Source: a virus
Taxonomy: Duplodnaviria; Heunggongvirae; Uroviricota; Caudoviricetes
Strand: one strand, 5' to 3'
Virus record (IMG/VR): IMGVR_UViG_2548876962_000012
DNA: 31,871 bases
Numbering within the stretch: position 1 is the first letter of the stretch; every line of letters starts with the position of its first letter. The notes below the pieces were generated by a model. The model was not told the origin of the DNA, made no database searches, and saw only the letters and a list, made by a program, of their open reading frames with translations. Positions 1-31,871 of the stretch are shown here, one piece after another. The translations under genes were made by a program, and so were the position numbers.

Positions 1-219
1 TTACATCCACATAATTTGCTGCCCTGACGGCAACGGGTGCGGTCTTACGGCGTGGACTTCTCCCGGCTTCACAATGTATCGCTGTACCGACTCATAAGTG
101 ATGAACGTGGCGCTGCAATTCACGTTCTGGCACTGGTGATAACGCTCTTTTGTCGTGTCAGTGATATAGCGGCTTGTACGCGCATGTGCGGCATGCTGGC
201 ATAAAGGACAATGAAACAT
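1..219 (-). CDS. ogr: Ogr late-gene transcriptional activator (zinc finger), 72 aa
   Basis: Translation MFHCPLCQHAAHARTSRYITDTTKERYHQCQNVNCSATF with a C-x2-C...C-x4-C zinc-finger pattern; ATG at 217-219; stop at 1-3. The 93-aa track ORF is an upstream in-frame extension. Confidence 0.9.
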   Translation of the reverse strand: MFHCPLCQHAAHARTSRYITDTTKERYHQCQNVNCSATFITYESVQRYIVKPGEVHAVRPHPLPSGQQIMWM

Positions 220-6931: not shown

Positions 6932-7900
6932 TTATATGCCATTTTCAAGATCTGCGATTAGGTCAAAGCATAGCGATTTATAATCCTTTACGATCTTCGG
7001 CCGAATGGTTATTGAATGATATTTCAGCAACGCAAGGGCGAATGAGGAAAAATACAGCCAGAACCAGTCATCTTCCGGTAAATTGACATCTTGCACAGTC
7101 GCCGACCAACGCCCGTAAATGGGAGGATGAGTCTCTGAACCCGCGAGACGGTTTCTTCCTGTTGCGAAAAGGATAAAGGCGAATGCTAGAGCGATCCCCA
7201 TCATACGCTTCATCCTAACCTTTTCCGGGGGATACCCACTGCTTGCGGCGTACTCATCGATCTTGGATATCATCATATCCTTAGCGAACTGATCACACAG
7301 ATATTCTTCGTCCTTCGGGTCTTCCGGTGCATTTCCTTCAACTGAGAAAATTACGTGCTTCAGTTCATGTAAAAATACATATGCCGTAGCCATGCACATA
7401 AGATCATATACTGCAGCGCTCTCTGAATCTGACGGCCTACCCTTCTCAGGCTCAGGAATAGCCACTGGCCATTCAAAGTCGTCTTCATGAAATGCAGTGC
7501 TCAGGTCTTTCACTGCATCAAGTATCGACTTGAAGGCTTCATCTTCTGCTGCCTGATCTGGAATCTTGTTGATTTTGTTTATGTCGAGAGTGGCACCGCA
7601 TGATTTGAACAATTCAATCAACGAACAATAACAATGTAACGCCTGCATTCCCGCATAACTGAAAAGCCATATTTGACGCATTGATCTGCTGGTGTACTGG
7701 ATTGCGGAGAATCCTCCAGCATCTAAGTTAAATCCTTCGCGGTCACCAATCAGTCGGAACTGGGCATCATAATCGTTAGCGATAGATTCAATCTCTGATG
7801 CTCTCTCAGGAACAACACCGTCAAAAAGTTTTCGAACATTGTCTGTCGTTTCCACTAGTCCTCCTATGGCATATAAAAGTGCGTTATACCGGCCCCGCAA
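6932..7900 (-). CDS. Cargo protein with HExxH motif, putative zinc metallopeptidase, 322 aa (Z/fun position)
   Basis: AT-rich ORF between G and FI; HELKH at residues 178-182 followed by acidic residues; one hydrophobic segment (GIALAFAFILFATG); TTG start at 7900 preceded by a strong SD (AAGGAAG, 6-nt spacer); own downstream terminator. Confidence 0.6.
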   Translation of the reverse strand: MRGRYNALLYAIGGLVETTDNVRKLFDGVVPERASEIESIANDYDAQFRLIGDREGFNLDAGGFSAIQYTSRSMRQIWLFSYAGMQALHCYCSLIELFKSCGATLDINKINKIPDQAAEDEAFKSILDAVKDLSTAFHEDDFEWPVAIPEPEKGRPSDSESAAVYDLMCMATAYVFLHELKHVIFSVEGNAPEDPKDEEYLCDQFAKDMMISKIDEYAASSGYPPEKVRMKRMMGIALAFAFILFATGRNRLAGSETHPPIYGRWSATVQDVNLPEDDWFWLYFSSFALALLKYHSITIRPKIVKDYKSLCFDLIADLENGI

Positions 7901-8611: not shown

Positions 8612-10861
8612 TTATACCTGCGCCACGTTATACCATGTCCCGTTAATGTATTTCTGCACCGGTCTGTAATATACGCCACCAATGTTATCGGCAGAGTTTG
8701 AGCCGGTATCCTGAACAATAATGCCGGTATATACGCAACCTGACGGAGCCTGATGCGTCCATGTAGTACCATTATTTGCTGGTTTATATGTAGATGCACC
8801 GCCCAGCCGCATGTCTCTCATATAACGTGAATCTGACTCAGTTTTGGTGTATGCACCAACATCTCCCGCTGAGGGTTTATGAGCAGTTGTATATAGTTGC
8901 GCCCATCCAGACCAGTTAGCATCTGTGGTATCTCGTCGGGAGCGAATATATGCCGGAGCATGAGCACCGCTGGTTCCACTCCAGCCAATAAGTAACTCAC
9001 CCTCTCCTACTGCGGTTACGCCAGTGAGATGAAGCACATTACCATAGGCTGTTGGGTAGCCATTGTTGTATGCCTCATACATCTGAACACCTGGTGTCCC
9101 CTTTACGCTCCCACCTAATGCAGTAACACGGTTTCTGGATACCAGTGTATTAATATTTATATCGGCAGAGCCATCAAATCTGACACCATTAATATTTCTT
9201 GCGTTCGCTAACTTCGTTGCTGTTGCAGCATTTCCTGAAAGGCTGGAAATAAATGGATGTGAACAGTAATAACCACGTCCATTTTTAAAATCCAGAATAG
9301 CCTGTGCGTTCGTGCTTTCTGTAGCGGGATTAGTTGCCCCCCACTTATATGTCGTCTGACCGACGACATAATCCTCTGTCGGAACAATAACCGTTAGCCC
9401 TTCCTCTGCAAGAATTTGTACAGGGAAAGCTCTGGCTTCAACATAAAAAACACTACATACATCATCATCTTTCAGGCTTGTAACAATGGAATGAATTGAA
9501 CGCTCATTAGTCTGATACGTCCAGAAATAACCTGCCGCATATGAACCACGATCAGTCCAGCCTCCGGGCATAACCATGCCATTAAACTCGCAGTTATTCA
9601 TTACATAATCGCTGTTATAACAACCAGTGGAAATAACGACGCGGGATGCCATTTCTCCTGAAAGGCTGGCAGCACGGCGAAAGATAACGGGATACCACTT
9701 CCCGGCAACGACATTTGCAGGGGCTGCAAACGAATACTTTCGCATTCCCTTTTTCTTATCCACTTCACCTTTGCTGTAAACATTAATGTTACTCAGGAAG
9801 CGTCCTTTATCAGGAATATCCGCACCGTTCTGATCTTTCTGAAGACGTTTTTCAGCATTGTCATAGGCAGACTTCACCGCTTTTGGTGTTGCGGCCAGCG
9901 TTTCAGAATCACTGTTGGTGGCGCTACTGAGCTGGACAAGCCCTTTTCGCGCCGTGGTGGCATCCTGTGCAGTGTATTTCCCGTTAGCAAGGTCATACGC
10001 GGCCTTTACCGCCTTTGGCGTTGCCGCAAGCATTTCAGAATCGCTGTTGGTGACGCTACTGAGCTGGACAAGACCTTTTCGCGCTGTGGTGGCGTCCTGT
10101 GCAGTGTATTTCCCGTTAGCAAGGTCATATGCTGCCTTTACCGCTTTCGGCGTTGCGGCGAGCGTTTCAGACGTGCTGTTAGTCGCACTACTGAGCTGAA
10201 CAAGGCCTTTTCGCGCGGTGGTAGCGTCCTGTGCGGTATATTTCCCGTTAGCAAGGTCATATGCGGCCTTAACCGCTTTCGGCGTTGCAGCCAGTGTTTC
10301 AGACGTGCTGTTGGTCGCACTGCTTAACTGAGTAAAACCTTTTGCGGTCAGCGAGGCGTCAGGGTGACGTCGTGACTGTTCATGTTCTGCAATTTTGTCA
10401 TCAACGTAATCCTGCGTTGCCATCACCGTTGTGGTGTCAATGGTCAGCTCCACTGAGGCCACACTGCTGACGATGATGACCATGCGGCAGGTCTGCGAAC
10501 GCCCTGAGCCTTCGGCAAGAGCTGGCTTATAACTTTCGGCCATGTTCGCCACGGCAATTAACGTTCCAGCATCATCGTACAGGCCAAGCTCACGCATCCA
10601 GAAACCGCCCACCTCCGGCGGAATAACCAGCTCTGCGATAATATAATTACTGTTTCGTTTGTCCTGGCTGATTTTGTTCAGCGCATGTCGCCAGACTTCG
10701 TGGATAAGCCCGGTCTGTCCGGCATCCGGGACAGGCAATTTACCACCGCCATCCCCGACGGCCATCGTGGTAATGTTGACCTTCCGCCCTCCCGGTGCGG
10801 TTGCCGCTGCCAGCTTTGCTGCACCGGCAGTGGTGATAACGGTTTTGAATTTTGTGCTCAT
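8612..10861 (-). CDS. H: Tail fibre protein gpH, 749 aa
   Basis: N-terminus MSTKFKTVITTAGAAKLAAA typical of P2-family H; four tandem 44-aa tail-fibre repeats; a variable C-terminal region. Confidence 0.9.
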   Translation of the reverse strand: MSTKFKTVITTAGAAKLAAATAPGGRKVNITTMAVGDGGGKLPVPDAGQTGLIHEVWRHALNKISQDKRNSNYIIAELVIPPEVGGFWMRELGLYDDAGTLIAVANMAESYKPALAEGSGRSQTCRMVIIVSSVASVELTIDTTTVMATQDYVDDKIAEHEQSRRHPDASLTAKGFTQLSSATNSTSETLAATPKAVKAAYDLANGKYTAQDATTARKGLVQLSSATNSTSETLAATPKAVKAAYDLANGKYTAQDATTARKGLVQLSSVTNSDSEMLAATPKAVKAAYDLANGKYTAQDATTARKGLVQLSSATNSDSETLAATPKAVKSAYDNAEKRLQKDQNGADIPDKGRFLSNINVYSKGEVDKKKGMRKYSFAAPANVVAGKWYPVIFRRAASLSGEMASRVVISTGCYNSDYVMNNCEFNGMVMPGGWTDRGSYAAGYFWTYQTNERSIHSIVTSLKDDDVCSVFYVEARAFPVQILAEEGLTVIVPTEDYVVGQTTYKWGATNPATESTNAQAILDFKNGRGYYCSHPFISSLSGNAATATKLANARNINGVRFDGSADININTLVSRNRVTALGGSVKGTPGVQMYEAYNNGYPTAYGNVLHLTGVTAVGEGELLIGWSGTSGAHAPAYIRSRRDTTDANWSGWAQLYTTAHKPSAGDVGAYTKTESDSRYMRDMRLGGASTYKPANNGTTWTHQAPSGCVYTGIIVQDTGSNSADNIGGVYYRPVQKYINGTWYNVAQV
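9850..10375. repeat. Four tandem 132-bp in-frame repeats inside gene H
   Basis: Period exactly 132 bp (landmark tttcaga at 9900, 10032, 10164, 10296); encoded 44-aa unit KGLVQLSSATNS(T/D)SETLAATPKAVKAAYDLANGKYTAQDATTAR. Confidence 0.85.
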
Positions 10862-12307: not shown

Positions 12308-12655
12308 TCAACTCACAGGGATGGTTAACGAAAGTGGCTGGCCGGTGTCGTTGTGCTGGCCGGTTAACGTGACCGTCATTCGCCCGTCAAAACTGCGCGC
12401 CGTGGTGACAGATGACAGGGTGACGCGGGGTTCCCATTTCAGTACCGCCATGTAACAGGCGACCTTAATCTGCAACTCAAGCGCCGGGGTCTGCGGCTGG
12501 TCAATCATTGACGCCAGCAACGAGCCGTAATCACGACGCATCACCCGTGAGCCGACCGGTGTGCGCAGGATATCGCCGATACTCTGGCTGATATGCTCAA
12601 GGTCAGTGACAGTCAGGCCATCACTGCGATTCATTCCGAGATAACGCGCTGTCAT
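12308..12655 (-). CDS. W: Baseplate wedge protein gpW, 115 aa
   Basis: 115-aa ORF; P2 W length; ATG start overlaps the V stop (ATGA). Confidence 0.85.
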   Translation of the reverse strand: MTARYLGMNRSDGLTVTDLEHISQSIGDILRTPVGSRVMRRDYGSLLASMIDQPQTPALELQIKVACYMAVLKWEPRVTLSSVTTARSFDGRMTVTLTGQHNDTGQPLSLTIPVS

Positions 12656-13293
12656 TTTGTCCCCTGTGTCCAGTTTTCTCCTGACTTAACACCACCGTGA
12701 CCGTGGTCATCCACCTGAACGCCGTTAGAAGTGAATTTCCCGTCGGTATGCTCGATGTTGCCGTGCATCTTCCCGCCCTTCTGCACTTCCAGCGTGCCGG
12801 TAGTCAGCTTGTTGGTGCAGACCACCTCCGGTGTGTCCAGGGTGATGCGAGTTGACGCTTTCACCATGACCACCGGCACCGTGGCGGTAACAGAATCAGA
12901 AGCCGTCACGCTGGCCGTTTTAATTCCGCTTGCCGTGAGCGCACTGGTTTCGGGTTCATACTCAATCACCGCCCCGTCAGGGAAACGGATGTACAGGGCA
13001 TCCGCCGACGCAGACGGCGCGGGGTTATCACCGGAATAAATCCCCGGCAGAACAAACGCCGTGTCGAGTTCGCCGCCCACGGACAGAATCAGCACCTGCT
13101 CCCCCACCGAAGGTGCCCACCATGTGCGTGAACGTCCGGCACGATGGGTCAGCCACTGAAGCCAGTCAGTGCACATGCCGCCGGTCTGCACACGGCAGCG
13201 ACCGGCTTTAAGGTTGGTTTCGACGACAAGGCCAGTACGAATCATGTTGCGCAGTGCGCGCGCGAGTTCCTGAATATTTGCGAGAGTGTTCAT
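12652..13293 (-). CDS. V: Baseplate spike protein gpV, about 213 aa
   Basis: Start assigned to the ATG at 13291-13293 (MNTLANIQELARAL); the longer track ORF begins at a TTG six codons upstream. Confidence 0.8.
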   Translation of the reverse strand: MNTLANIQELARALRNMIRTGLVVETNLKAGRCRVQTGGMCTDWLQWLTHRAGRSRTWWAPSVGEQVLILSVGGELDTAFVLPGIYSGDNPAPSASADALYIRFPDGAVIEYEPETSALTASGIKTASVTASDSVTATVPVVMVKASTRITLDTPEVVCTNKLTTGTLEVQKGGKMHGNIEHTDGKFTSNGVQVDDHGHGGVKSGENWTQGTK

Positions 13294-13376
13294 GCATGTG
13301 AGATTGCACAATATATAAAAGTTATGCTATCTGGATTCATTTGTAGAACCACCAGACAACATTCAAGGAGAGCGTA

Positions 13377-14162
13377 ATGGTCAGCTATAATGTGACTAAT
13401 GTGTGGGAGCTAATCGTCTTGTATCTTTTGGTCTTTGTAGTATTAGCATTTTTTAGCTTTGGTAAAAGTAACCTTATGAGGCTTATTGCACATTATTTCA
13501 AATTTGGATATTCAGATAAAAAATTAAAAAGACTGGACCGCGAGTGGCGCGACATTCAACTATTTAAAATAATTAACGGAATCAATGTATCAGGCATCAA
13601 AGATGTGAAAATGATACAGCAGGGGTTGATTGATGGAAAACTAAAAACATCGGATTTTTTCCTTACTCGCTTCTGGGGAGACATAACAGAACCGCCATGC
13701 ATCACAAAAACAATGAGTGCAGTCCTGGCCGGAATTCTTTATATTACCTTCGCATGTTGCATACACAACGAGCAATCTGCCATAGTAGAGGATGCCATAG
13801 CCATACCATATAAAAATATGATGTACCATGTTTATAATGACAAGGTTCTTTTGTTCTCCGACAATAAAACAGATAAGTTCTATAAAGCGTTTAGCATTGC
13901 CGATTGCAAGAGACTGCAGAACACTTTTGTAACAGACACACTTCCTGCAATCGCCTGCAATAAGCTCTTACAGCTAAACGAGGAGGACTCCGAATGGTTA
14001 AGTCAGGAGATTAAAGATAATAACAGCCACAGAAAAACATTATTAATAATATCCCTCGTCTATTTCACTTCAGGTCTGGTTATACTTCTGTCATATACAA
14101 AATTCCTTTACGCCAATAAAAAAGTTGTAGAATACAAATCATCAAATAAAAACCACTCATAA
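13377..14162 (+). CDS. Cargo membrane protein, three predicted TM helices, 261 aa (orf30 position, opposite strand)
   Basis: Very AT-rich ORF on the opposite strand to all flanking late genes; ATG with SD AAGGAG at 7-nt spacing; hydrophobic segments at the N-terminus, middle (MSAVLAGILYITFACCI) and C-terminus (LLIISLVYFTSGLVILLSY). Confidence 0.6.
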   Translation: MVSYNVTNVWELIVLYLLVFVVLAFFSFGKSNLMRLIAHYFKFGYSDKKLKRLDREWRDIQLFKIINGINVSGIKDVKMIQQGLIDGKLKTSDFFLTRFWGDITEPPCITKTMSAVLAGILYITFACCIHNEQSAIVEDAIAIPYKNMMYHVYNDKVLLFSDNKTDKFYKAFSIADCKRLQNTFVTDTLPAIACNKLLQLNEEDSEWLSQEIKDNNSHRKTLLIISLVYFTSGLVILLSYTKFLYANKKVVEYKSSNKNHS

Positions 14163-14168
14163 TTCTCT

Positions 14169-14203
14169 AAACATTGAGCGACCAGCACAGCCGCTCAATG
14201 TTT
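14169..14203. terminator. Hairpin between the convergent cargo membrane gene and gene S (possible bidirectional terminator)
   Basis: 12-bp perfect inverted repeat aaacattgagcg / cgctcaatgttt with an 11-nt loop, followed by TTTAATT on the plus strand. Confidence 0.45.
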
Positions 14204-14233
14204 AATTGCGCATCAGCCTCTGCCTAGATAAAA

Positions 14234-14686
14234 CTAACGCTCAAGGTGAGCCAGGATAATCTCTTCAATCATCTGCACATCCTCACCGGTAAAGCCGAGC
14301 AGAGGACGCGTCGGATAATCAATTTTCTTACCGTCTTTCCGGGTTTCTTCCGACAGACCGAACTGATGCACACTGGCGATTTTCGGTGACTTTCCGCCGT
14401 AAAACTCCATTGATGCCTGTTCCGGGCTGGCGCGGATATGCAAAAAACGACTGGTGATAAGTTTCGCAAACATTTTTCGCTTAACACGACCGGTCTTTTT
14501 TCTGGCGCTCTGCTGCTGGCGTGGTGCGTAGGGTGTGCCGTCCGGGGCTTTCTGTGCCATCACCCGGCGCTGCTGACTCTGCCGCAGATGTTTCGCCAGT
14601 TCGGTGCTCAGTCGCCGACGCCCTGATGGTGACAGTGATTCAATCAGCCCGGTCAGCCGGTCTTCAAAACGCTTAAACTCATTCAT
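14234..14686 (-). CDS. S: Tail completion protein gpS, 150 aa
   Basis: 150-aa ORF; P2 S length and position; overlaps the R stop. Confidence 0.85.
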   Translation of the reverse strand: MNEFKRFEDRLTGLIESLSPSGRRRLSTELAKHLRQSQQRRVMAQKAPDGTPYAPRQQQSARKKTGRVKRKMFAKLITSRFLHIRASPEQASMEFYGGKSPKIASVHQFGLSEETRKDGKKIDYPTRPLLGFTGEDVQMIEEIILAHLER

Positions 14687-20602: not shown

Positions 20603-22375
20603 ATGACCATCACCACAGACACCACTCTTTTACACGACCCGCGTCGTCAGGCGGCGCTGCTGTACTGGCAGGGGTTTTCCGTGCCGCAGATTGCCGCCAT
20701 GTTGCAGATGAAACGCCCGACGGTGCAGAGCTGGAAACAGCGCGACGGCTGGGACAGCGTTGCCCCCATCAGCCGTGTCGAAATGAGCCTGGAAGCGCGG
20801 CTGACCCAGCTCATCATCAAACCGCAGAAAACCGGCGGTGACTTCAAGGAAATTGACCTGCTGGGACGCCAGATTGAACGACTGGCACGGGTCAACCGTT
20901 ACAGCCAGACCGGCAACGAGGCAGACCTTAATCCGAACATCGCTAACCGCAACAAAGGCGGGCGTCGCAAACCGAAAAAGAATTTTTTCAGTGACGAGGC
21001 CATCGAAAAGCTGGAGCAGATTTTCTTTGAGCAGTCTTTCGAATATCAGTTGCACTGGTATCGCGCCGGGCTTGAGCACCGCATCCGCGATATCCTGAAA
21101 TCCCGCCAGATTGGCGCGACGTTTTATTTTTCCCGCGAGGCGCTGCTGCGCGCCCTGAAAACCGGTCATAACCAGATTTTTCTGTCGGCCAGTAAAACGC
21201 AGGCGTATGTGTTCCGCGAATACATCATCGCCTTTGCCCGGCTGGTTGACGTTGACCTGACCGGTGACCCGATTGTCCTGGGCAATAACGGCGCAAAACT
21301 GATTTTTCTCGGCACCAACTCCAACACCGCACAGAGCCATAACGGCGACCTGTACGTCGATGAGATTTTCTGGATCCCGAATTTTCAGGTACTGCGTAAG
21401 GTGGCATCAGGTATGGCCTCACAGAGTCACCTGCGCTCGACCTATTTCTCCACCCCGTCCACGCTGGCGCACGACGCCTACCCGTTCTGGTCGGGTGAAC
21501 TGTTCAACCGGGGTCGCGCCAGCGCCGCCGAACGCGTGGAAATCGACGTCAGTCATAACGCCCTTGCCGGAGGTCTTCTCTGTGCGGACGGCCAGTGGCG
21601 GCAGATTGTCACCATTGAGGACGCGCTGAAAGGCGGCTGCACGCTGTTCGACATTGAGCAGCTCAAACGTGAAAACAGCGCCGACGATTTTAAAAACCTG
21701 TTCATGTGTGAATTTGTTGACGACAAAGCGTCGGTGTTCCCGTTCGAGGAGCTGCAACGCTGCATGGTCGACACGCTGGAAGAATGGGAAGACTATGCGC
21801 CGTTTGCCGCGAATCCGTTCGGCTCCCGCCCGGTATGGATTGGTTACGACCCGTCACACCGTGGCGACAGTGCCGGATGCGTGGTGCTGGCACCGCCGGT
21901 GGTGGCCGGTGGCAAATTCAGAATACTTGAGCGTCACCAGTGGAAAGGCATGGACTTTGCCACTCAGGCTGAATCCATCCGCAAACTCACCGAAAAATAC
22001 AACGTCGAATACATCGGTATTGATGCCACCGGCCTCGGTGTCGGCGTGTTCCAGCTCGTGCGCTCGTTCTATCCCGCCGCGCGCGACATCCGCTACACGC
22101 CGGAAATGAAAACCGCAATGGTGCTCAAGGCAAAAGACGTCATCCGCCGTGGCTGTCTGGAATATGACGTCAGCGCCACCGACATCACCAGCTCGTTTAT
22201 GGCTATCCGCAAGACCATGACCAGCAGCGGACGCAGCGCCACCTATGAGGCCAGCCGCAGCGAGGAAGCCAGCCACGCCGACCTCGCCTGGGCGACCATG
22301 CACGCCCTGTTAAATGAGCCACTCACCGCCGGTATCAGCACTCCGCTGACATCCACCATTCTGGAGTTTTACTGA
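20603..22375 (+). CDS. P: Terminase large subunit gpP, 590 aa
   Basis: ATG at 20603 with SD GAGGT; 590 aa as in P2 P; stop overlaps the Q start (TGATG). Confidence 0.9.
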   Translation: MTITTDTTLLHDPRRQAALLYWQGFSVPQIAAMLQMKRPTVQSWKQRDGWDSVAPISRVEMSLEARLTQLIIKPQKTGGDFKEIDLLGRQIERLARVNRYSQTGNEADLNPNIANRNKGGRRKPKKNFFSDEAIEKLEQIFFEQSFEYQLHWYRAGLEHRIRDILKSRQIGATFYFSREALLRALKTGHNQIFLSASKTQAYVFREYIIAFARLVDVDLTGDPIVLGNNGAKLIFLGTNSNTAQSHNGDLYVDEIFWIPNFQVLRKVASGMASQSHLRSTYFSTPSTLAHDAYPFWSGELFNRGRASAAERVEIDVSHNALAGGLLCADGQWRQIVTIEDALKGGCTLFDIEQLKRENSADDFKNLFMCEFVDDKASVFPFEELQRCMVDTLEEWEDYAPFAANPFGSRPVWIGYDPSHRGDSAGCVVLAPPVVAGGKFRILERHQWKGMDFATQAESIRKLTEKYNVEYIGIDATGLGVGVFQLVRSFYPAARDIRYTPEMKTAMVLKAKDVIRRGCLEYDVSATDITSSFMAIRKTMTSSGRSATYEASRSEEASHADLAWATMHALLNEPLTAGISTPLTSTILEFY

Positions 22376-23409
22376 TGAGCAAGAAAAAAGGGAAAACACC
22401 GCAACCTGCGGCAAAAACAATGACCGCCAGCGCCCCGAAAATGGAGGCATTCACCTTTGGTGAGCCGGTGTCGGTACTCGACCGCCGTGACATTCTGGAT
22501 TACGTCGAGTGCATCAGTAACGGCAGATGGTATGAGCCACCGGTCAGCTTTACCGGTCTGGCAAAAAGCCTGCGTGCTGCCGTGCATCACAGCTCACCGA
22601 TTTACGTCAAACGCAATATTCTGGCCTCGACATTTATCCCGCATCCGTGGCTTTCCCAGCAGGATTTCAGCCGCTTTGTGCTGGATTTTCTGGTGTTCGG
22701 TAATGCGTTTCTGGAAAAGCGTTACAGCACCACCGGTAAGGTCATCAGACTGGAAACCTCACCGGCAAAATATACCCGCCGTGGCGTGGAGGAGGATGTT
22801 TACTGGTGGGTGCCGTCCTTCAACGAGCCGACAGCCTTCGCGCCCGGCTCCGTGTTTCACCTGCTGGAGCCGGATATCAATCAGGAGCTGTACGGCCTGC
22901 CGGAATATCTCAGCGCCCTTAACTCTGCCTGGCTGAATGAATCAGCCACGCTGTTCCGCCGCAAGTATTACGAAAACGGCGCACATGCCGGATACATCAT
23001 GTACGTCACCGATGCCGTGCAGGATCGCAACGATATCGAAATGCTCCGCGAAAACATGGTGAAGTCGAAAGGCCGCAACAACTTTAAAAACCTGTTTCTC
23101 TATGCCCCACAGGGGAAAGCCGACGGCATTAAAATTATCCCGCTCAGTGAAGTGGCAACGAAGGACGATTTTTTTAATATCAAAAAAGCCAGCGCCGCTG
23201 ACCTGCTGGACGCGCACCGCATCCCCTTTCAGTTGATGGGCGGCAAGCCGGAGAACGTCGGGTCGCTGGGCGATATTGAGAAAGTGGCAAAGGTCTTTGT
23301 CCGCAATGAGCTTATCCCGCTACAGGACAGGATCCGCGAGATAAACGGCTGGCTCGGCCAGGAAGTCATCCGCTTTAAAAACTACTCACTGGACACTGAC
23401 AACAGCTGA
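22375..23409 (+). CDS. Q: Portal protein gpQ, 344 aa
   Basis: 344-aa ORF adjacent to cos; P2 Q length and position. Confidence 0.9.
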   Translation: MSKKKGKTPQPAAKTMTASAPKMEAFTFGEPVSVLDRRDILDYVECISNGRWYEPPVSFTGLAKSLRAAVHHSSPIYVKRNILASTFIPHPWLSQQDFSRFVLDFLVFGNAFLEKRYSTTGKVIRLETSPAKYTRRGVEEDVYWWVPSFNEPTAFAPGSVFHLLEPDINQELYGLPEYLSALNSAWLNESATLFRRKYYENGAHAGYIMYVTDAVQDRNDIEMLRENMVKSKGRNNFKNLFLYAPQGKADGIKIIPLSEVATKDDFFNIKKASAADLLDAHRIPFQLMGGKPENVGSLGDIEKVAKVFVRNELIPLQDRIREINGWLGQEVIRFKNYSLDTDNS

Positions 23410-23801: not shown

Positions 23802-24254
23802 TTATGCTTCCTCTGTATTCATAAGTCTTAAAAGAATTTCTCCAGTGCTAGCATCAGACATTAGATCATTTAACGCTTTGATTAACGTTTCTTTATCTTT
23901 GCACCTAACATCCCGTTTGTTATAAGAAATCACACATGGATAACCATCTGATTCATTTATCTTCCAAACAGCAATGTTCTCTTTAACTTCTGTTTGCTCT
24001 CTCTTAGTTACGAACGATAGAGCTTCGTAATCGATGTAAGGGTTGATGTTTGTAATCGAACTCACAACGGCAGTAAGCGCTGTCTGATTAGGTGCGAGTT
24101 TTTTTTCACTCGTAACTTTCAAAAACACTCGCCCTTGACTAAGCTCCTTTACACTGTCACTTAAGTCACTGATAACACTAAAAATTTCTTCTTTATTTGA
24201 TCTTGCTTTTTTGGCTGCCTCTAACCCCACAGCTAATGAATTTTTGAAATCCAT
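23802..24254 (-). CDS. Cargo protein of unknown function, 150 aa, downstream partner of the EEP gene
   Basis: AT-rich ORF; ATG 4 nt after the EEP gene stop with a GAGAGG SD-like element; no TM segments or recognisable motifs. Confidence 0.6.
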   Translation of the reverse strand: MDFKNSLAVGLEAAKKARSNKEEIFSVISDLSDSVKELSQGRVFLKVTSEKKLAPNQTALTAVVSSITNINPYIDYEALSFVTKREQTEVKENIAVWKINESDGYPCVISYNKRDVRCKDKETLIKALNDLMSDASTGEILLRLMNTEEA

Positions 24255-24258
24255 TTTT

Positions 24259-25161
24259 TTAACCTCTCGTAATTACAGCGATAACAGGTAAATGATCAAA
24301 GTTAGTTTTTGGACTTGTCACCAAATTTTTAAAGACTTCATCGTTAATGATTTTAACCTCATCCTCCAAAAGATTCCAATCTCCACCAGAAATGAATGAA
24401 GAGGAGAAAATAATTTGATCAAATGTATGCCAACGGGTTACAGCACCGCCACTGTAATAATATGTCCCGTAAGTACTCAAATGATGATCTTCTGATGGAA
24501 AACTAATTGAAGCCCCCATAAAATTCCAAAAAGGGTTGTATAAAAAAATATCTTTTTTGACAACCAAGTCTCTATCCCTTGTTGCCCCTAAAGCATGTGT
24601 AATAGATTTATTAAAGGGATCGTCATTGTAATCACCTAAAAGAATAAAATACTTTCCTGACTTTTCCTCTATACATCTACTGATCGCTCCTCGCAAAGCT
24701 TTTCCTAATTCATATCGTTTTGGCATTTCTTCATTAGAATCATTACCTCTCATAGGCCAATGCGATATGTAGAAAAAAAAATGATCCCCACTATTATTAT
24801 GCATGAGCTGAACTTCTTGCCCGGCTCTTACCGCTCCTAACAATGACTGTTCAACAATACTTTTACTATCAATGTAAGTGAAAGTAGCTAGCTTTATAAG
24901 AATGCACATATCATGTTTTATGCTTCCTTCAGTGAAAGTCCCATCATATATTATGAACCCTTTCTCTGAGAAAATCTCCTCTAAAACCTTAATATCTGAT
25001 GGTGATATTTCTCCAAGACATAGAATATCAACATTATGACTCATCAAAATATTTGTTATAAGAGCAAATGCTACATCCAACTCTTCAGGAGTAGAACGAT
25101 CTCTTTTAACCGCAGGAGATATCCCCGTATTCCACCAAGCGATTGAAACAGCCTCACACAT
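24259..25161 (-). CDS. Cargo EEP-fold (endonuclease/exonuclease/phosphatase family) protein, 300 aa
   Basis: Very AT-rich ORF; ordered EEP signature motifs: WWNTG near the N-terminus, DILCLGE (the LCLQE-type motif), LLGDYNDD (GDxN), and FDHLPV (SDHxPV-type) at the C-terminus. Confidence 0.7.
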   Translation of the reverse strand: MCEAVSIAWWNTGISPAVKRDRSTPEELDVAFALITNILMSHNVDILCLGEISPSDIKVLEEIFSEKGFIIYDGTFTEGSIKHDMCILIKLATFTYIDSKSIVEQSLLGAVRAGQEVQLMHNNSGDHFFFYISHWPMRGNDSNEEMPKRYELGKALRGAISRCIEEKSGKYFILLGDYNDDPFNKSITHALGATRDRDLVVKKDIFLYNPFWNFMGASISFPSEDHHLSTYGTYYYSGGAVTRWHTFDQIIFSSSFISGGDWNLLEDEVKIINDEVFKNLVTSPKTNFDHLPVIAVITRG

Positions 25162-30022: not shown

Positions 30023-30379
30023 TTAGGCCGCGTGGCCATGTCTGGATTTGCTGTAACTTATGCGATTCTTCCAGTCATGCCATTCTGTCGGAGCTTCATC
30101 GACTAGTTGAGCTGCATATTTGTCCCACTCACGACGATTAATCCATAACTCAGCATGACCGCCCGGCTTTAACGGGTCTGTCATATAGAATGCTGGCAGC
30201 TTTCCAGCTCGTGCCATTTCAGCCACCGCACGAGGAGTCTTACCGATGTAAAGAGCAAAACCCTCTTTCGACAGTAAATCTGACGGATCCGCAGCCAACT
30301 TAATGGAATCACGCTTGTTTTTTTTAAGAGCAGAAACTTCTTGTCTTTTCTCGTCACAAATTTCAGATCCGACATTCAT
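30023..30379 (-). CDS. cox: Cox-like excisionase / early-operon regulator (HTH), 118 aa
   Basis: First gene of the early operon, divergent from C; segment YIGKTPRAVAEMARAGKLPAFYMTDP resembles the Cox-family HTH; ATG with GAGGA SD. Confidence 0.6.
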   Translation of the reverse strand: MNVGSEICDEKRQEVSALKKNKRDSIKLAADPSDLLSKEGFALYIGKTPRAVAEMARAGKLPAFYMTDPLKPGGHAELWINRREWDKYAAQLVDEAPTEWHDWKNRISYSKSRHGHAA

Positions 30380-30482
30380 TTTGCTATCCTCACATTGATG
30401 TCAGCGATCTAGAGCGATTTAGAGTCGTTAGATGCTGATAAATCATATCAACTATGCAAAAGAATACGAGGTTAGAGAATTT
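30380..30482. promoter_or_regulatory. Immunity switch region (divergent Pe/Pc promoters and operator)
   Basis: 103-bp intergenic region between the divergent cox-like and C genes; three imperfect direct repeats at about 10-bp phasing (tctagagcga / tttagagtcg / ttagatgctg). Confidence 0.5.
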
Positions 30483-30782
30483 ATGTCAACTGACACTAGC
30501 GAACGTTTGAAGCTTATCCGTGAGTCTGAACGTCTGAAAATGAAGGAGGTAGCTGAACTAGCTGGCATCAACTACACCACATATGCAGGTTATGAATCAG
30601 GTAAGGCTATGATGTCCCTAGAAAATGCTAAGAAGTTTTTTAAAGTAGAAAGGTTCAGAAAATACCGTGACTGGTTCATGTTTGATGAAACTGATCCAGC
30701 AGCTGGACAAATAGCCCCGGCTCTCGCACACATTGGGCAAGACTCAACAATCTTGCACCACTCAGACCAAAAGACTGGCTGA
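30483..30782 (+). CDS. C: Immunity repressor C, 99 aa
   Basis: Start taken at the ATG at 30483 (MSTDTSERLKLIRESERLKMKEVAELAGINYTTYAGYESG, HTH), giving 99 aa; C-terminus GQIAPALAHIGQ...SDQKTG resembles P2 C. Confidence 0.8.
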   Translation: MSTDTSERLKLIRESERLKMKEVAELAGINYTTYAGYESGKAMMSLENAKKFFKVERFRKYRDWFMFDETDPAAGQIAPALAHIGQDSTILHHSDQKTG

Positions 30783-30875
30783 CGATTTATTCAGCATATG
30801 TGTGCAGTAAATGTACGAAAGAAAATTGCATTAATTTTCAAGTAGTAGAAGTAAACAGCGTCATCGGAGGGCTTT

Positions 30876-31871
30876 ATGTCTATTAAAAAGCTCGATGATG
30901 GTCGTTATGAAGTGGACGTCAGACCGCAGGGTGCAGATGGAAAACGTATCAGGCGGAAATTTAAAACTAAAGGTGAAGCTCAGGCATTCGAACGTCATGT
31001 GCTGGTTAATTACCACAACAAAGAGTGGTTAGAGAAGCCAGCCGACCGCCGAACTCTTACAGAGTTGTTAGGCAGATGGTGGATATATCACGGAAAATCA
31101 CATGAGCGTGGAGATATTGAACGAGGGCGTTTAACGACAATAATCGCCAAATTTGCAGAAATGGGAGTGTCCAGAGCAGACCAGCTAACAAAGAAAACGA
31201 TAACTGATTATCGCGTTGTAATGATGAACGATGGTCTAAAACCAGCCAGCGTAAATCGGCATCTGGCAATAATGAGCGGGATGTTCACCAAGTTAATTGA
31301 CGCCGGTGAATACCACTCTCACAACCCGTTCCGTGAGGTTAAGCGGTTACGTGAAGCTGTTACGGAAATGGCTTTTTTGTCCAGTGAAGAGATTACGCGG
31401 CTGTTATCCATGCTTGATGGCGATGAATTAAATGCAACGCTGGTCTGCCTTTCTACTGGTGGACGTTGGAGTGAAGTGTCTAATTTAAAAGCTGAACACA
31501 TCATTAACCAGATGGTTACGTTTATGAAAACTAAAAACGGAAAGCGCAGGACAATTCCCGTTTCGCAGGACCTGATTAAACGGATCAAGACCAAAAATTC
31601 AGGCAGGCTTTTTAATGCCAGTTACTACAAAGTGCGCAACGCTCTCAGGGAAGTAAAACCCGATTTACCTGACGGACAGGCAGTGCATGTTTTGAGGCAT
31701 ACATTTGCCACACATTTTATAATGAATGGAGGTAACATAATCACATTGCAGCGCATCCTGGGTCATTCTAACATTCAGCAAACTATGACCTACGCACACT
31801 TTGCACCGGATTTCTTACAAGATGCAGTGACTCTTAACCCGGTGTCAGGAATGTCCATAATGCGTCCATAA
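30876..31871 (+). CDS. int: Tyrosine integrase, 331 aa
   Basis: N-terminus MSIKKLDDGRYEVDVRPQG as in P2-family Int; C-terminal catalytic region HVLRHTFATHF...LGHSNIQQTMTYAHF with the R, H-x-x-R and Y residues. Confidence 0.9.
   Translation: MSIKKLDDGRYEVDVRPQGADGKRIRRKFKTKGEAQAFERHVLVNYHNKEWLEKPADRRTLTELLGRWWIYHGKSHERGDIERGRLTTIIAKFAEMGVSRADQLTKKTITDYRVVMMNDGLKPASVNRHLAIMSGMFTKLIDAGEYHSHNPFREVKRLREAVTEMAFLSSEEITRLLSMLDGDELNATLVCLSTGGRWSEVSNLKAEHIINQMVTFMKTKNGKRRTIPVSQDLIKRIKTKNSGRLFNASYYKVRNALREVKPDLPDGQAVHVLRHTFATHFIMNGGNIITLQRILGHSNIQQTMTYAHFAPDFLQDAVTLNPVSGMSIMRP

Follow-up and report, generated by a model that had tools for sequence, protein, structure and literature searches.

An orf30 homologue at the V-S junction of a P2-like prophage encodes a predicted inner-membrane protein with a possible anti-phage role

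Organization of the locus and identity of the gene

The window, that is, the whole stretch of 31,871 nucleotides analysed here (IMG/VR record IMGVR_UViG_2548876962_000012), was found to be a complete P2-like prophage which is colinear with P2 and reversed in orientation relative to the P2 record. Both ogr and int were located (Table 1), and nearly all of the P2 proteins are present in order. The genes for gpV and gpS are separated by an open reading frame on the other strand, which matches P2 orf30 in place and in strand. The initial annotation had described it as the sole plus strand gene of the late region, which does not hold, as portal gene Q and terminase gene P are on the plus strand too.

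Table 1. Features of the orf30 locus and of the other regions of the window mentioned in the text
Feature	Position	Strand	Basis or remark
ogr	4-219		
Lit-like protein, 322 aa, Z/fun locus between tail genes G and FI	6932..7900	-	
Tail-fibre gene H	8612..10861	-	
Replaced C-terminal tip of gpV spike (residues 184-212)	12652..12740		
gpV baseplate spike, left flank, divergent from orf30	12652..13293	-	tblastn with P2 gpV, 86% identity
V/orf30 divergent intergenic region, 83 bp	13294..13376	.	near-identical to P2 sequence
Whole low-GC orf30 module, 940 bp	13294..14233	.	comparison with Wphi, phage 899, R18C and P2, and GC profile
Late promoter pV (minus strand) and activator (Ogr) site	site ~13335-13362	-	homology to P2 10239-10266
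Shine-Dalgarno sequence of orf30 homologue, AAGGAG	13365-13370		6 nt 5' of the ATG
orf30 homologue CDS	13377..14162	+	ATG start, 261 aa, 30 kDa, pI 9.0, predicted inner-membrane protein
Inverted repeat, 13-bp stem, between convergent orf30 and S	14168..14204	.	P2 annotation 9397-9433, putative O-operon terminator
gpS tail completion protein, right flank, convergent with orf30	14234..14686	-	tblastn with P2 gpS, 96.7% identity
Portal gene Q and terminase gene P	20603-23403	+	
Two co-directional genes, old/tin locus between cos/Q and gene A	23802..25161	-	GC 0.35-0.37
Immunity/integration region	30074..31850		unlike the P2 type
int	30876-31850		

The gene is real. About 7% of random codons are expected to be stop codons at the base composition of the ORF, and therefore an open run of 261 codons is not a product of chance (probability of about 1e-8 by our own arithmetic). 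The canonical Shine-Dalgarno sequence and the strong AT-richness reported earlier were both recovered: the GC content of the gene is 0.363 in comparison to 0.58 for gpV, 0.53 for gpS and 0.516 for the whole window, and a 400-bp GC profile falls to 0.39-0.41 across 13201-14400 only.

Comparison of the encoded protein with P2 Orf30 (AAD03281.1) has shown 210 of 261 residues to be identical (80%) over the full length and with no gaps (E = 5e-160), and the phrog_2407 profile is matched over positions 1-261 of 261 with an E-value of 3.8e-136. The gene is, virtually beyond doubt, the accessory gene orf30, here carried by a P2-like (Peduovirus) prophage. The initial annotation had placed the gene at the position of the P2 orf30 moron, which understated its identity, as it is orf30 itself; the homology search which it proposed has returned P2 Orf30 as the full-length match. 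The closest allele is found in Yersinia phage vB_YpM_46, with 99.4% nucleotide identity. The gene is thus already known, and our finding re-identifies a long-annotated, non-essential ORF of P2. Orf30 is listed as 'unknown' in PMC3091744, where the orf30 region is named, together with the Z and TO regions, among the sites of horizontally acquired genes in P2-like phages, and phage R18C carries a different ORF at the orf30 position (PMC6823313). No phenotype of Orf30 is reported in the searchable literature, though P2 is a classical model.

The homologue shares with P2 Orf30 its length of 261 amino acids, its low GC content, a near-identical upstream region and the downstream hairpin. It differs in its divergence: about 20% of amino acids in comparison to 0-4% for most of the neighbouring late proteins and 14% for gpV. 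Most of the late proteins around the gene are 93-100% identical to those of P2.

Boundaries, promoters and terminator of the orf30 module

The limits of the low-GC module fall just after the V start codon and at the S stop codon, and everything in between differs from the phages of the Wphi type (Wphi and 899), in which an unrelated 66-bp V-S spacer takes the place of the 940-bp module. The module therefore brings its own version of pV. In the P2 record orf30 is closely preceded by the pV activator site and closely followed by the putative O-operon terminator. The corresponding hairpin of the window has a fold energy of -17.2 kcal/mol as plus strand RNA and -23.0 kcal/mol as minus strand RNA, with z-scores of -5.0 and -4.6, respectively. 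A clear downstream T-run is absent on the plus strand. The hairpin is positioned to act as a putative stop for both the orf30 and the S transcripts. A scan of the whole window against Rfam gave 0 hits.

The plus strand upstream of the gene gave no match in a sigma-70 scan, and visual inspection yielded no more than a weak extended -10 candidate (TTGCAC at 13304-13309, an 18-nt spacer and TGcTATCTG). In a strict search, the late-activator motif TGT-N12-ACA was not found near the gene. The only upstream space available for an orf30 promoter overlaps pV and its activator site. A divergent late promoter sharing this activator site was considered and rejected. The site lies only about 28 bp from the orf30 start codon, and that of the divergent pP/pO pair lies about 55 bp from each transcription start, so a geometry of the pP/pO type would put the start inside the ORF, upstream of the conserved first transmembrane helix.

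These observations bear on the possibility that Orf30 is an accessory of the lytic cycle which tunes events at the membrane, such as the timing of lysis, the exclusion of a secondary infection in the latent period or host takeover, and is dispensable in the laboratory. The lack of an obvious constitutive promoter in the scan would fit such a role, as would the long embedding of the gene between late operons beside pV in many genera and the existence of other non-essential membrane-acting late genes of P2, namely lysA, lysB and lysC. However, orf30 runs counter to the late operons on either side of it, and the position of the activator site speaks against late control in the way just described. 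With the distribution data given below, we regard this role as improbable.

Protein architecture and predicted structure

Three hydrophobic peaks of 19 residues each were found on the Kyte-Doolittle scale (9-27, 112-130 and 221-239), and transmembrane helices are predicted at about 9-28, 111-131 and 221-241, which bears out the three helices proposed in the initial annotation. An AlphaFold2 model built from a 29-sequence alignment (pLDDT 81.4, pTM 0.70) places helices at 6-28, 109-134 and 202-260, in agreement with the hydrophobic segments; a model from five close alleles only was useless (pLDDT 48). In the former model, loop 1 is helical, loop 2 forms a four-strand sheet with short helices, and residues 202-260 make one continuous helix of 59 residues.

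The layout is constant in all 29 aligned members of the family: a short uncharged N-terminus, TM1, loop 1, TM2, loop 2, an uncharged TM3 and a tail. Loop 1 has 82 residues (81 in one member) and is net positive in every member, and loop 2 has 80-91 residues and exactly two cysteines in every member; the C-terminal tail is net positive in most of them. Residues G68, G87, C194 and I212 are invariant, and C177, Q61, D76, N247 and K254 are nearly so. The best family motif, D-x-Q-L-F-[KR]-x3-G-[IV]-N-V-x4-D-A, is located in loop 1.

According to the positive-inside rule, basic loops are found on the cytoplasmic side of the membrane. Because of their positive charge, loop 1 and the tail would thus be cytoplasmic, which would leave the two-cysteine loop in the periplasm and the N-terminus outside. 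C177 and C194 are probably joined by a disulphide in this loop. Orf30 is accordingly described here as a predicted three-helix integral protein of the inner membrane.

Scans of the protein against Pfam, NCBIfam and PADLOC gave nothing significant and no enzymatic motif, as the initial annotation had supposed; among the PADLOC-DB v2 defence-protein models, 0 families matched at E < 1. A sequence search of the PDB returned chance hits only (E >= 0.16), and structure comparison of the AlphaFold2 model found no solved or viral predicted match beyond a generic helical or claudin-like layout. In claudin/TARP-type proteins, transmembrane helices are capped by an extracytoplasmic beta-sheet, and the likeness of the Orf30 model to them is generic only.

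Distribution of the Orf30 family

An exhaustive HMMER search of 1.84 billion representatives (E up to 1e-3) yielded 42 clusters, of which about 20 are full length (250-271 aa) at 18-33% identity; a word-indexed search found four close clusters only. The named members are all from Enterobacterales (Escherichia, Yersinia, Pectobacterium, Sodalis, Serratia and Pantoea) and are all annotated as 'hypothetical protein'. The phrog_2407 profile is matched by 29 of 29 aligned members.

A relation to Pfam DUF6216 (PF19723, 270 profile positions) is seen through the divergent members. The Sodalis protein P0024 matches it end to end with 28.9 bits, above the gathering threshold of 27.3, and P0034, P0006, P0046, P0031 and P0047 score below that cut-off; at E < 0.01, five of 23 family members match, colinear over the full length. 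The protein of the window and the other E. coli alleles gave no hit to DUF6216, even at E < 1 to 10. The relation thus appears to be distant and transitive only. DUF6216 is of the same length class as Orf30, and the Pfam family carries no functional information. In the text matched in 10.64898/2026.09.05.749240, DUF6216 occurs once, 'P2-like' four times and BL21 29 times, and this source may bear on orf30.

In Yersinia, Pectobacterium, Sodalis, Buttiauxella, Kosakonia, Pseudescherichia and an Enterobacter MAG, the homologues adjoin gpV and are encoded on the other strand in every case. When the prophage of the window is compared with its Yersinia, Pectobacterium, Sodalis and metagenomic relatives, the J, W, V, S and R proteins are 45-82% identical and the Orf30 homologues 22-33%. 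In the Pectobacterium locus (L025 4800-6440), an ORF6N-domain protein and two small ORFs are present beside the homologue.

The Pantoea and Serratia copies are located just downstream of an integrase gene, the Pantoea copy being at one end of a 186-like prophage; in Pantoea sp. S-LA4 (L003 8001-8777) the family member directly follows the integrase. Two standalone chromosomal copies have no recognisable prophage, P0051, which adjoins a LysE-family gene, and that of Pantoea sp. ARC270 (L006 8001-8777). The latter occupies the chromosomal site of S-LA4, with acetyltransferase and aroF neighbours and a 79-aa ORF upstream, and may be left after prophage loss or be part of an attachment-site flank.

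The two standalone copies would suit a lysogenic-conversion envelope factor with no role in phage defence, one serving, for example, stress tolerance, colicin or tailocin tolerance, or colonisation. The intactness of the gene in decayed prophages and the purifying selection on it, both described below, would suit such a factor as well. Against this, the family is tightly tied to P2-like prophages, always beside gpV, it is limited to the Enterobacterales which host such phages, and defence genes are found at the same junction in relatives. We consider an envelope factor of this kind unlikely.

Dispensability and selection

Among 5,426 complete E. coli genomes, 464 were found to have the orf30 gene and 1,024 an empty V-S junction; orf30 is absent from about two thirds of the E. 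coli relatives. Of the 464 copies, all but three (461) span 80% of the gene or more; their nucleotide identity is 85-100%, and is also given as mostly 80-90%. Among the phage records, 20 carry orf30; the junction is empty in about 55 and filled by other cargo in R18C. Viable relatives which lack the gene include Wphi and L-413C. A conserved structural or assembly component, which the initial annotation had set against its own proposal, is excluded, as Orf30 is labelled 'nonessential' in the P2 record (AF063097) and is absent in Wphi, L-413C and those of the phage records with an empty junction. It is near certain that orf30 is accessory, outside the virion and outside the essential lytic set, and that it is horizontally mobile low-GC cargo. 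It shows three traits of a moron: a distinct base composition (GC 0.36 in comparison to 0.53-0.58), presence or absence among colinear phages, and a putative terminator of its own in the hairpin described above. The absence of the gene from most of the E. coli relatives also counts against the accessory lytic role considered above.

The gene was found intact in two decayed prophages with an S or V pseudogene, those of E. coli ATCC 11303 and strain E22. In the former (L029, NZ_CP140008.1 1718881-1740873) all is lost between the portal and S fragments. Its retention in prophages which can no longer grow lytically is a further point against an accessory of the lytic cycle.

The dN/dS values by the Nei-Gojobori method for eight alleles were 0.44 for orf30, 0.17 for V, 0.14 for S and 0.10 for W. 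Within orf30 the value is 0.30 for both soluble loops, 0.26 for the tail and 0.7-1.2 for the transmembrane helices. The soluble parts of Orf30 are under purifying selection, and there is no hypervariable surface. Diversifying selection on the periplasmic loop was considered and rejected in view of its value; the transmembrane helices alone are relaxed.

A functionless selfish or relic ORF, hitch-hiking in a recombination hotspot, could account for the lack of any phenotype in the literature searched and for a dN/dS above the 0.10-0.17 of the neighbours. It is disfavoured by conservation and appears very improbable: the gene stays nearly complete in E. coli despite up to 15% nucleotide divergence, its loops are constrained, 261 codons at 36% GC cannot persist by chance, and the architecture, the loop length and the cysteine pair are kept down to about 20% identity across genera.

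The V-S junction in related prophages

Species-representative genomes provided 80 gpV loci (L030-L109) for a survey. In 22 of them nothing is inserted between S and V, in 34 the gap holds other low-GC cargo and in six the Orf30 family is present; the remaining 18 loci, in which S is not found within 5 kb, are suggestive of even larger insertions. The Orf30-family loci comprise five in the gap and one at a contig end, the gene always adjoining V and being divergent from it. The unrelated cargo fills gaps of 820-3,080 bp with a GC content of 0.32-0.48 in comparison to 0.52-0.63 in the flanks, is found on either strand and codes for proteins of 77-895 aa, most of it unannotated. PADLOC analysis of 49 of these other cargo proteins has shown matches to RT_V (7e-156), which is a defence-associated reverse transcriptase, PDC-S06 (9e-117), NsnA (3e-42), mad3 and PDC-M36A. 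With its varied low-GC cargo, defence genes included, the S-V junction therefore behaves like the known cargo hotspots of P2.

Two simpler views of the junction were rejected. The survey does not allow that it holds only the Orf30 family or nothing, and the R18C occupant (L012 936-1676), an ORF of 246 aa which shares the strand of the late genes and is unrelated to Orf30, is not an inverted family member, with an hhalign probability of 0.6%.

The hotspots of P2-like phages named in the passages matched in PMC9122126 and 10.1101/2024.10.15.618418 are those next to cos (old/tin), at Z/fun and at the tail protein/CI position; orf30 is unmentioned and the S/V junction is not among the hotspots in these matched passages.

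Possible function of Orf30

Our best guess, to which we give a probability of roughly 0.4, is that Orf30 is made by the prophage and has an envelope exclusion or abortive-infection role. This reading rests on the dispensability of the gene together with its conservation, on a membrane layout with a periplasmic domain, on the lack of catalytic motifs and on the company which the gene keeps. Orf30 made from the prophage would insert in the inner membrane with its N-terminus out, the basic helical domain of 82 residues facing the cytoplasm, the beta-rich domain of about 85 residues, probably disulphide-bonded through C177-C194, facing the periplasm, and the long TM3 helix ending in the basic cytoplasmic tail. 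Its action would be directed at incoming phages and take place at the envelope, either through a block of genome entry at the inner membrane (superinfection exclusion) or through a response to infection which compromises the membrane (abortive infection). The topology, the disulphide, the time of expression and the anti-phage activity are what we infer for Orf30 on these grounds.

T4 Imm, P22 SieA and HK97 gp15 are phage-encoded superinfection-exclusion proteins of the inner membrane, small and with no enzymatic domains, and HK97 gp15 is, like orf30, a moron lodged among tail genes. Orf30 differs from all three in size and in number of transmembrane helices, and sequence and fold searches detected no similarity of Orf30 to exclusion proteins. 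P2 old, tin and fun(Z) resemble orf30 as non-essential low-GC cargo at variable loci of P2 which is transcribed in the orf30 direction; they are soluble and have demonstrated targets in lambda, T-even phages and T5 (P2 record), whereas Orf30 is a predicted membrane protein.

For the anti-phage reading, both classical P2 hotspots of this prophage carry defence-type cargo. At the Z/fun locus, a Lit-like protein replaces P2 fun(Z); its matches to PADLOC Lit (1.8e-14) and Pfam Peptidase_U49 (3.8e-8) make it a candidate abortive-infection protease. At the old/tin locus, the first of the two low-GC genes encodes a 300-aa protein of the endonuclease/exonuclease/phosphatase family (Exo_endo_phos_3, 6.8e-16); the second, of 150 aa, has no hits, and neither gene has a PADLOC match. 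This pair is a candidate uncharacterised two-gene defence system. Guilt by association at a hotspot is weak evidence for a defence role; the cargo at the S-V junction is itself mostly unannotated, and the PADLOC screen covered just 49 proteins. Against the anti-phage reading stand the missing promoter match on the plus strand, the overlap of the upstream space with pV and its activator site, and the periplasmic loop, which gives no indication of diversifying selection.

The initial annotation had compared the gene with the membrane proteins of lysogenic conversion which act in superinfection exclusion or abortive infection. The part of this profile which stood is that of an accessory, non-structural gene in a low-GC module with a hairpin, at a junction which also receives defence genes; resemblance to known exclusion, abortive-infection or defence proteins was not found, nor was a convincing sigma-70 promoter. 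The searchable literature contains no report of orf30 transcription in lysogens or of a block of any phage by it. As a hypothesis, the anti-phage idea is reasonable and is modestly strengthened by the context.

A more specific form of abortive infection would have Orf30 lie inert in the membrane until a soluble domain senses infection; the protein would then oligomerise and depolarise or permeabilise the inner membrane, and the cell would die before phage release. A single gene with three transmembrane helices, one of them the 59-residue helix, and with no enzymatic domain would fit such an effector, its AT-richness would fit toxic cargo which is kept silenced, and abortive-infection-type cargo is seen at the S-V junction and elsewhere in the prophage (the defence-associated reverse transcriptase and Lit). 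However, PADLOC has shown no similarity to known membrane effectors of abortive infection, and a partner sensor gene is absent at the loci traced. A dedicated effector of this kind seems rather improbable. It overlaps with the envelope role preferred above, and sequence alone cannot separate the two.

Carried further, and more tentatively still, the envelope anti-phage reading raises the possibility that Orf30/phrog_2407 is an unrecognised single-gene anti-phage system of the inner membrane, with a fold which has no PDB counterpart, and that P2-like phages have an additional defence hotspot at the gpS/gpV junction. Among the genes of P2, the type phage of a very common prophage family, orf30 is one of the few with no function given in AF063097. 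If the proposal is true, Orf30 would add a compact single-gene family to the known defences, and the S/V junction would be one more place to mine for defence genes, with other and mostly unannotated cargo in 34 of the 80 loci.

Other variable loci of the prophage

Several further regions of the window depart from P2. In the tail-fibre gene H, the match to P2 gpH is limited to about the first 251 residues, and four tandem copies of a repeat of about 36 aa (…KGLVQLSSATNS[TD]SETLAATPKAVKAAYDLANGKYTAQDATTAR…) are present; the receptor-binding part of gene H and the assembly gene G (75% identity) differ from those of P2. The gpV spike has a replaced C-terminal tip, which reads …VQVDDHGHGGVKSGENWTQGTK in place of …KVLHTHKHPGDSGGTTGSPL in P2, and the rest of V is about 93% identical. 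In the immunity/integration region, C is 43%, cox 35% and int 53% identical to the P2 proteins; for replication genes A and B the identity is 96-99%. In E. coli ATCC 11303, the old/tin locus of the defective P2-like prophage is occupied by an 'ABC-three component system' and the Z locus by a glycosyltransferase.
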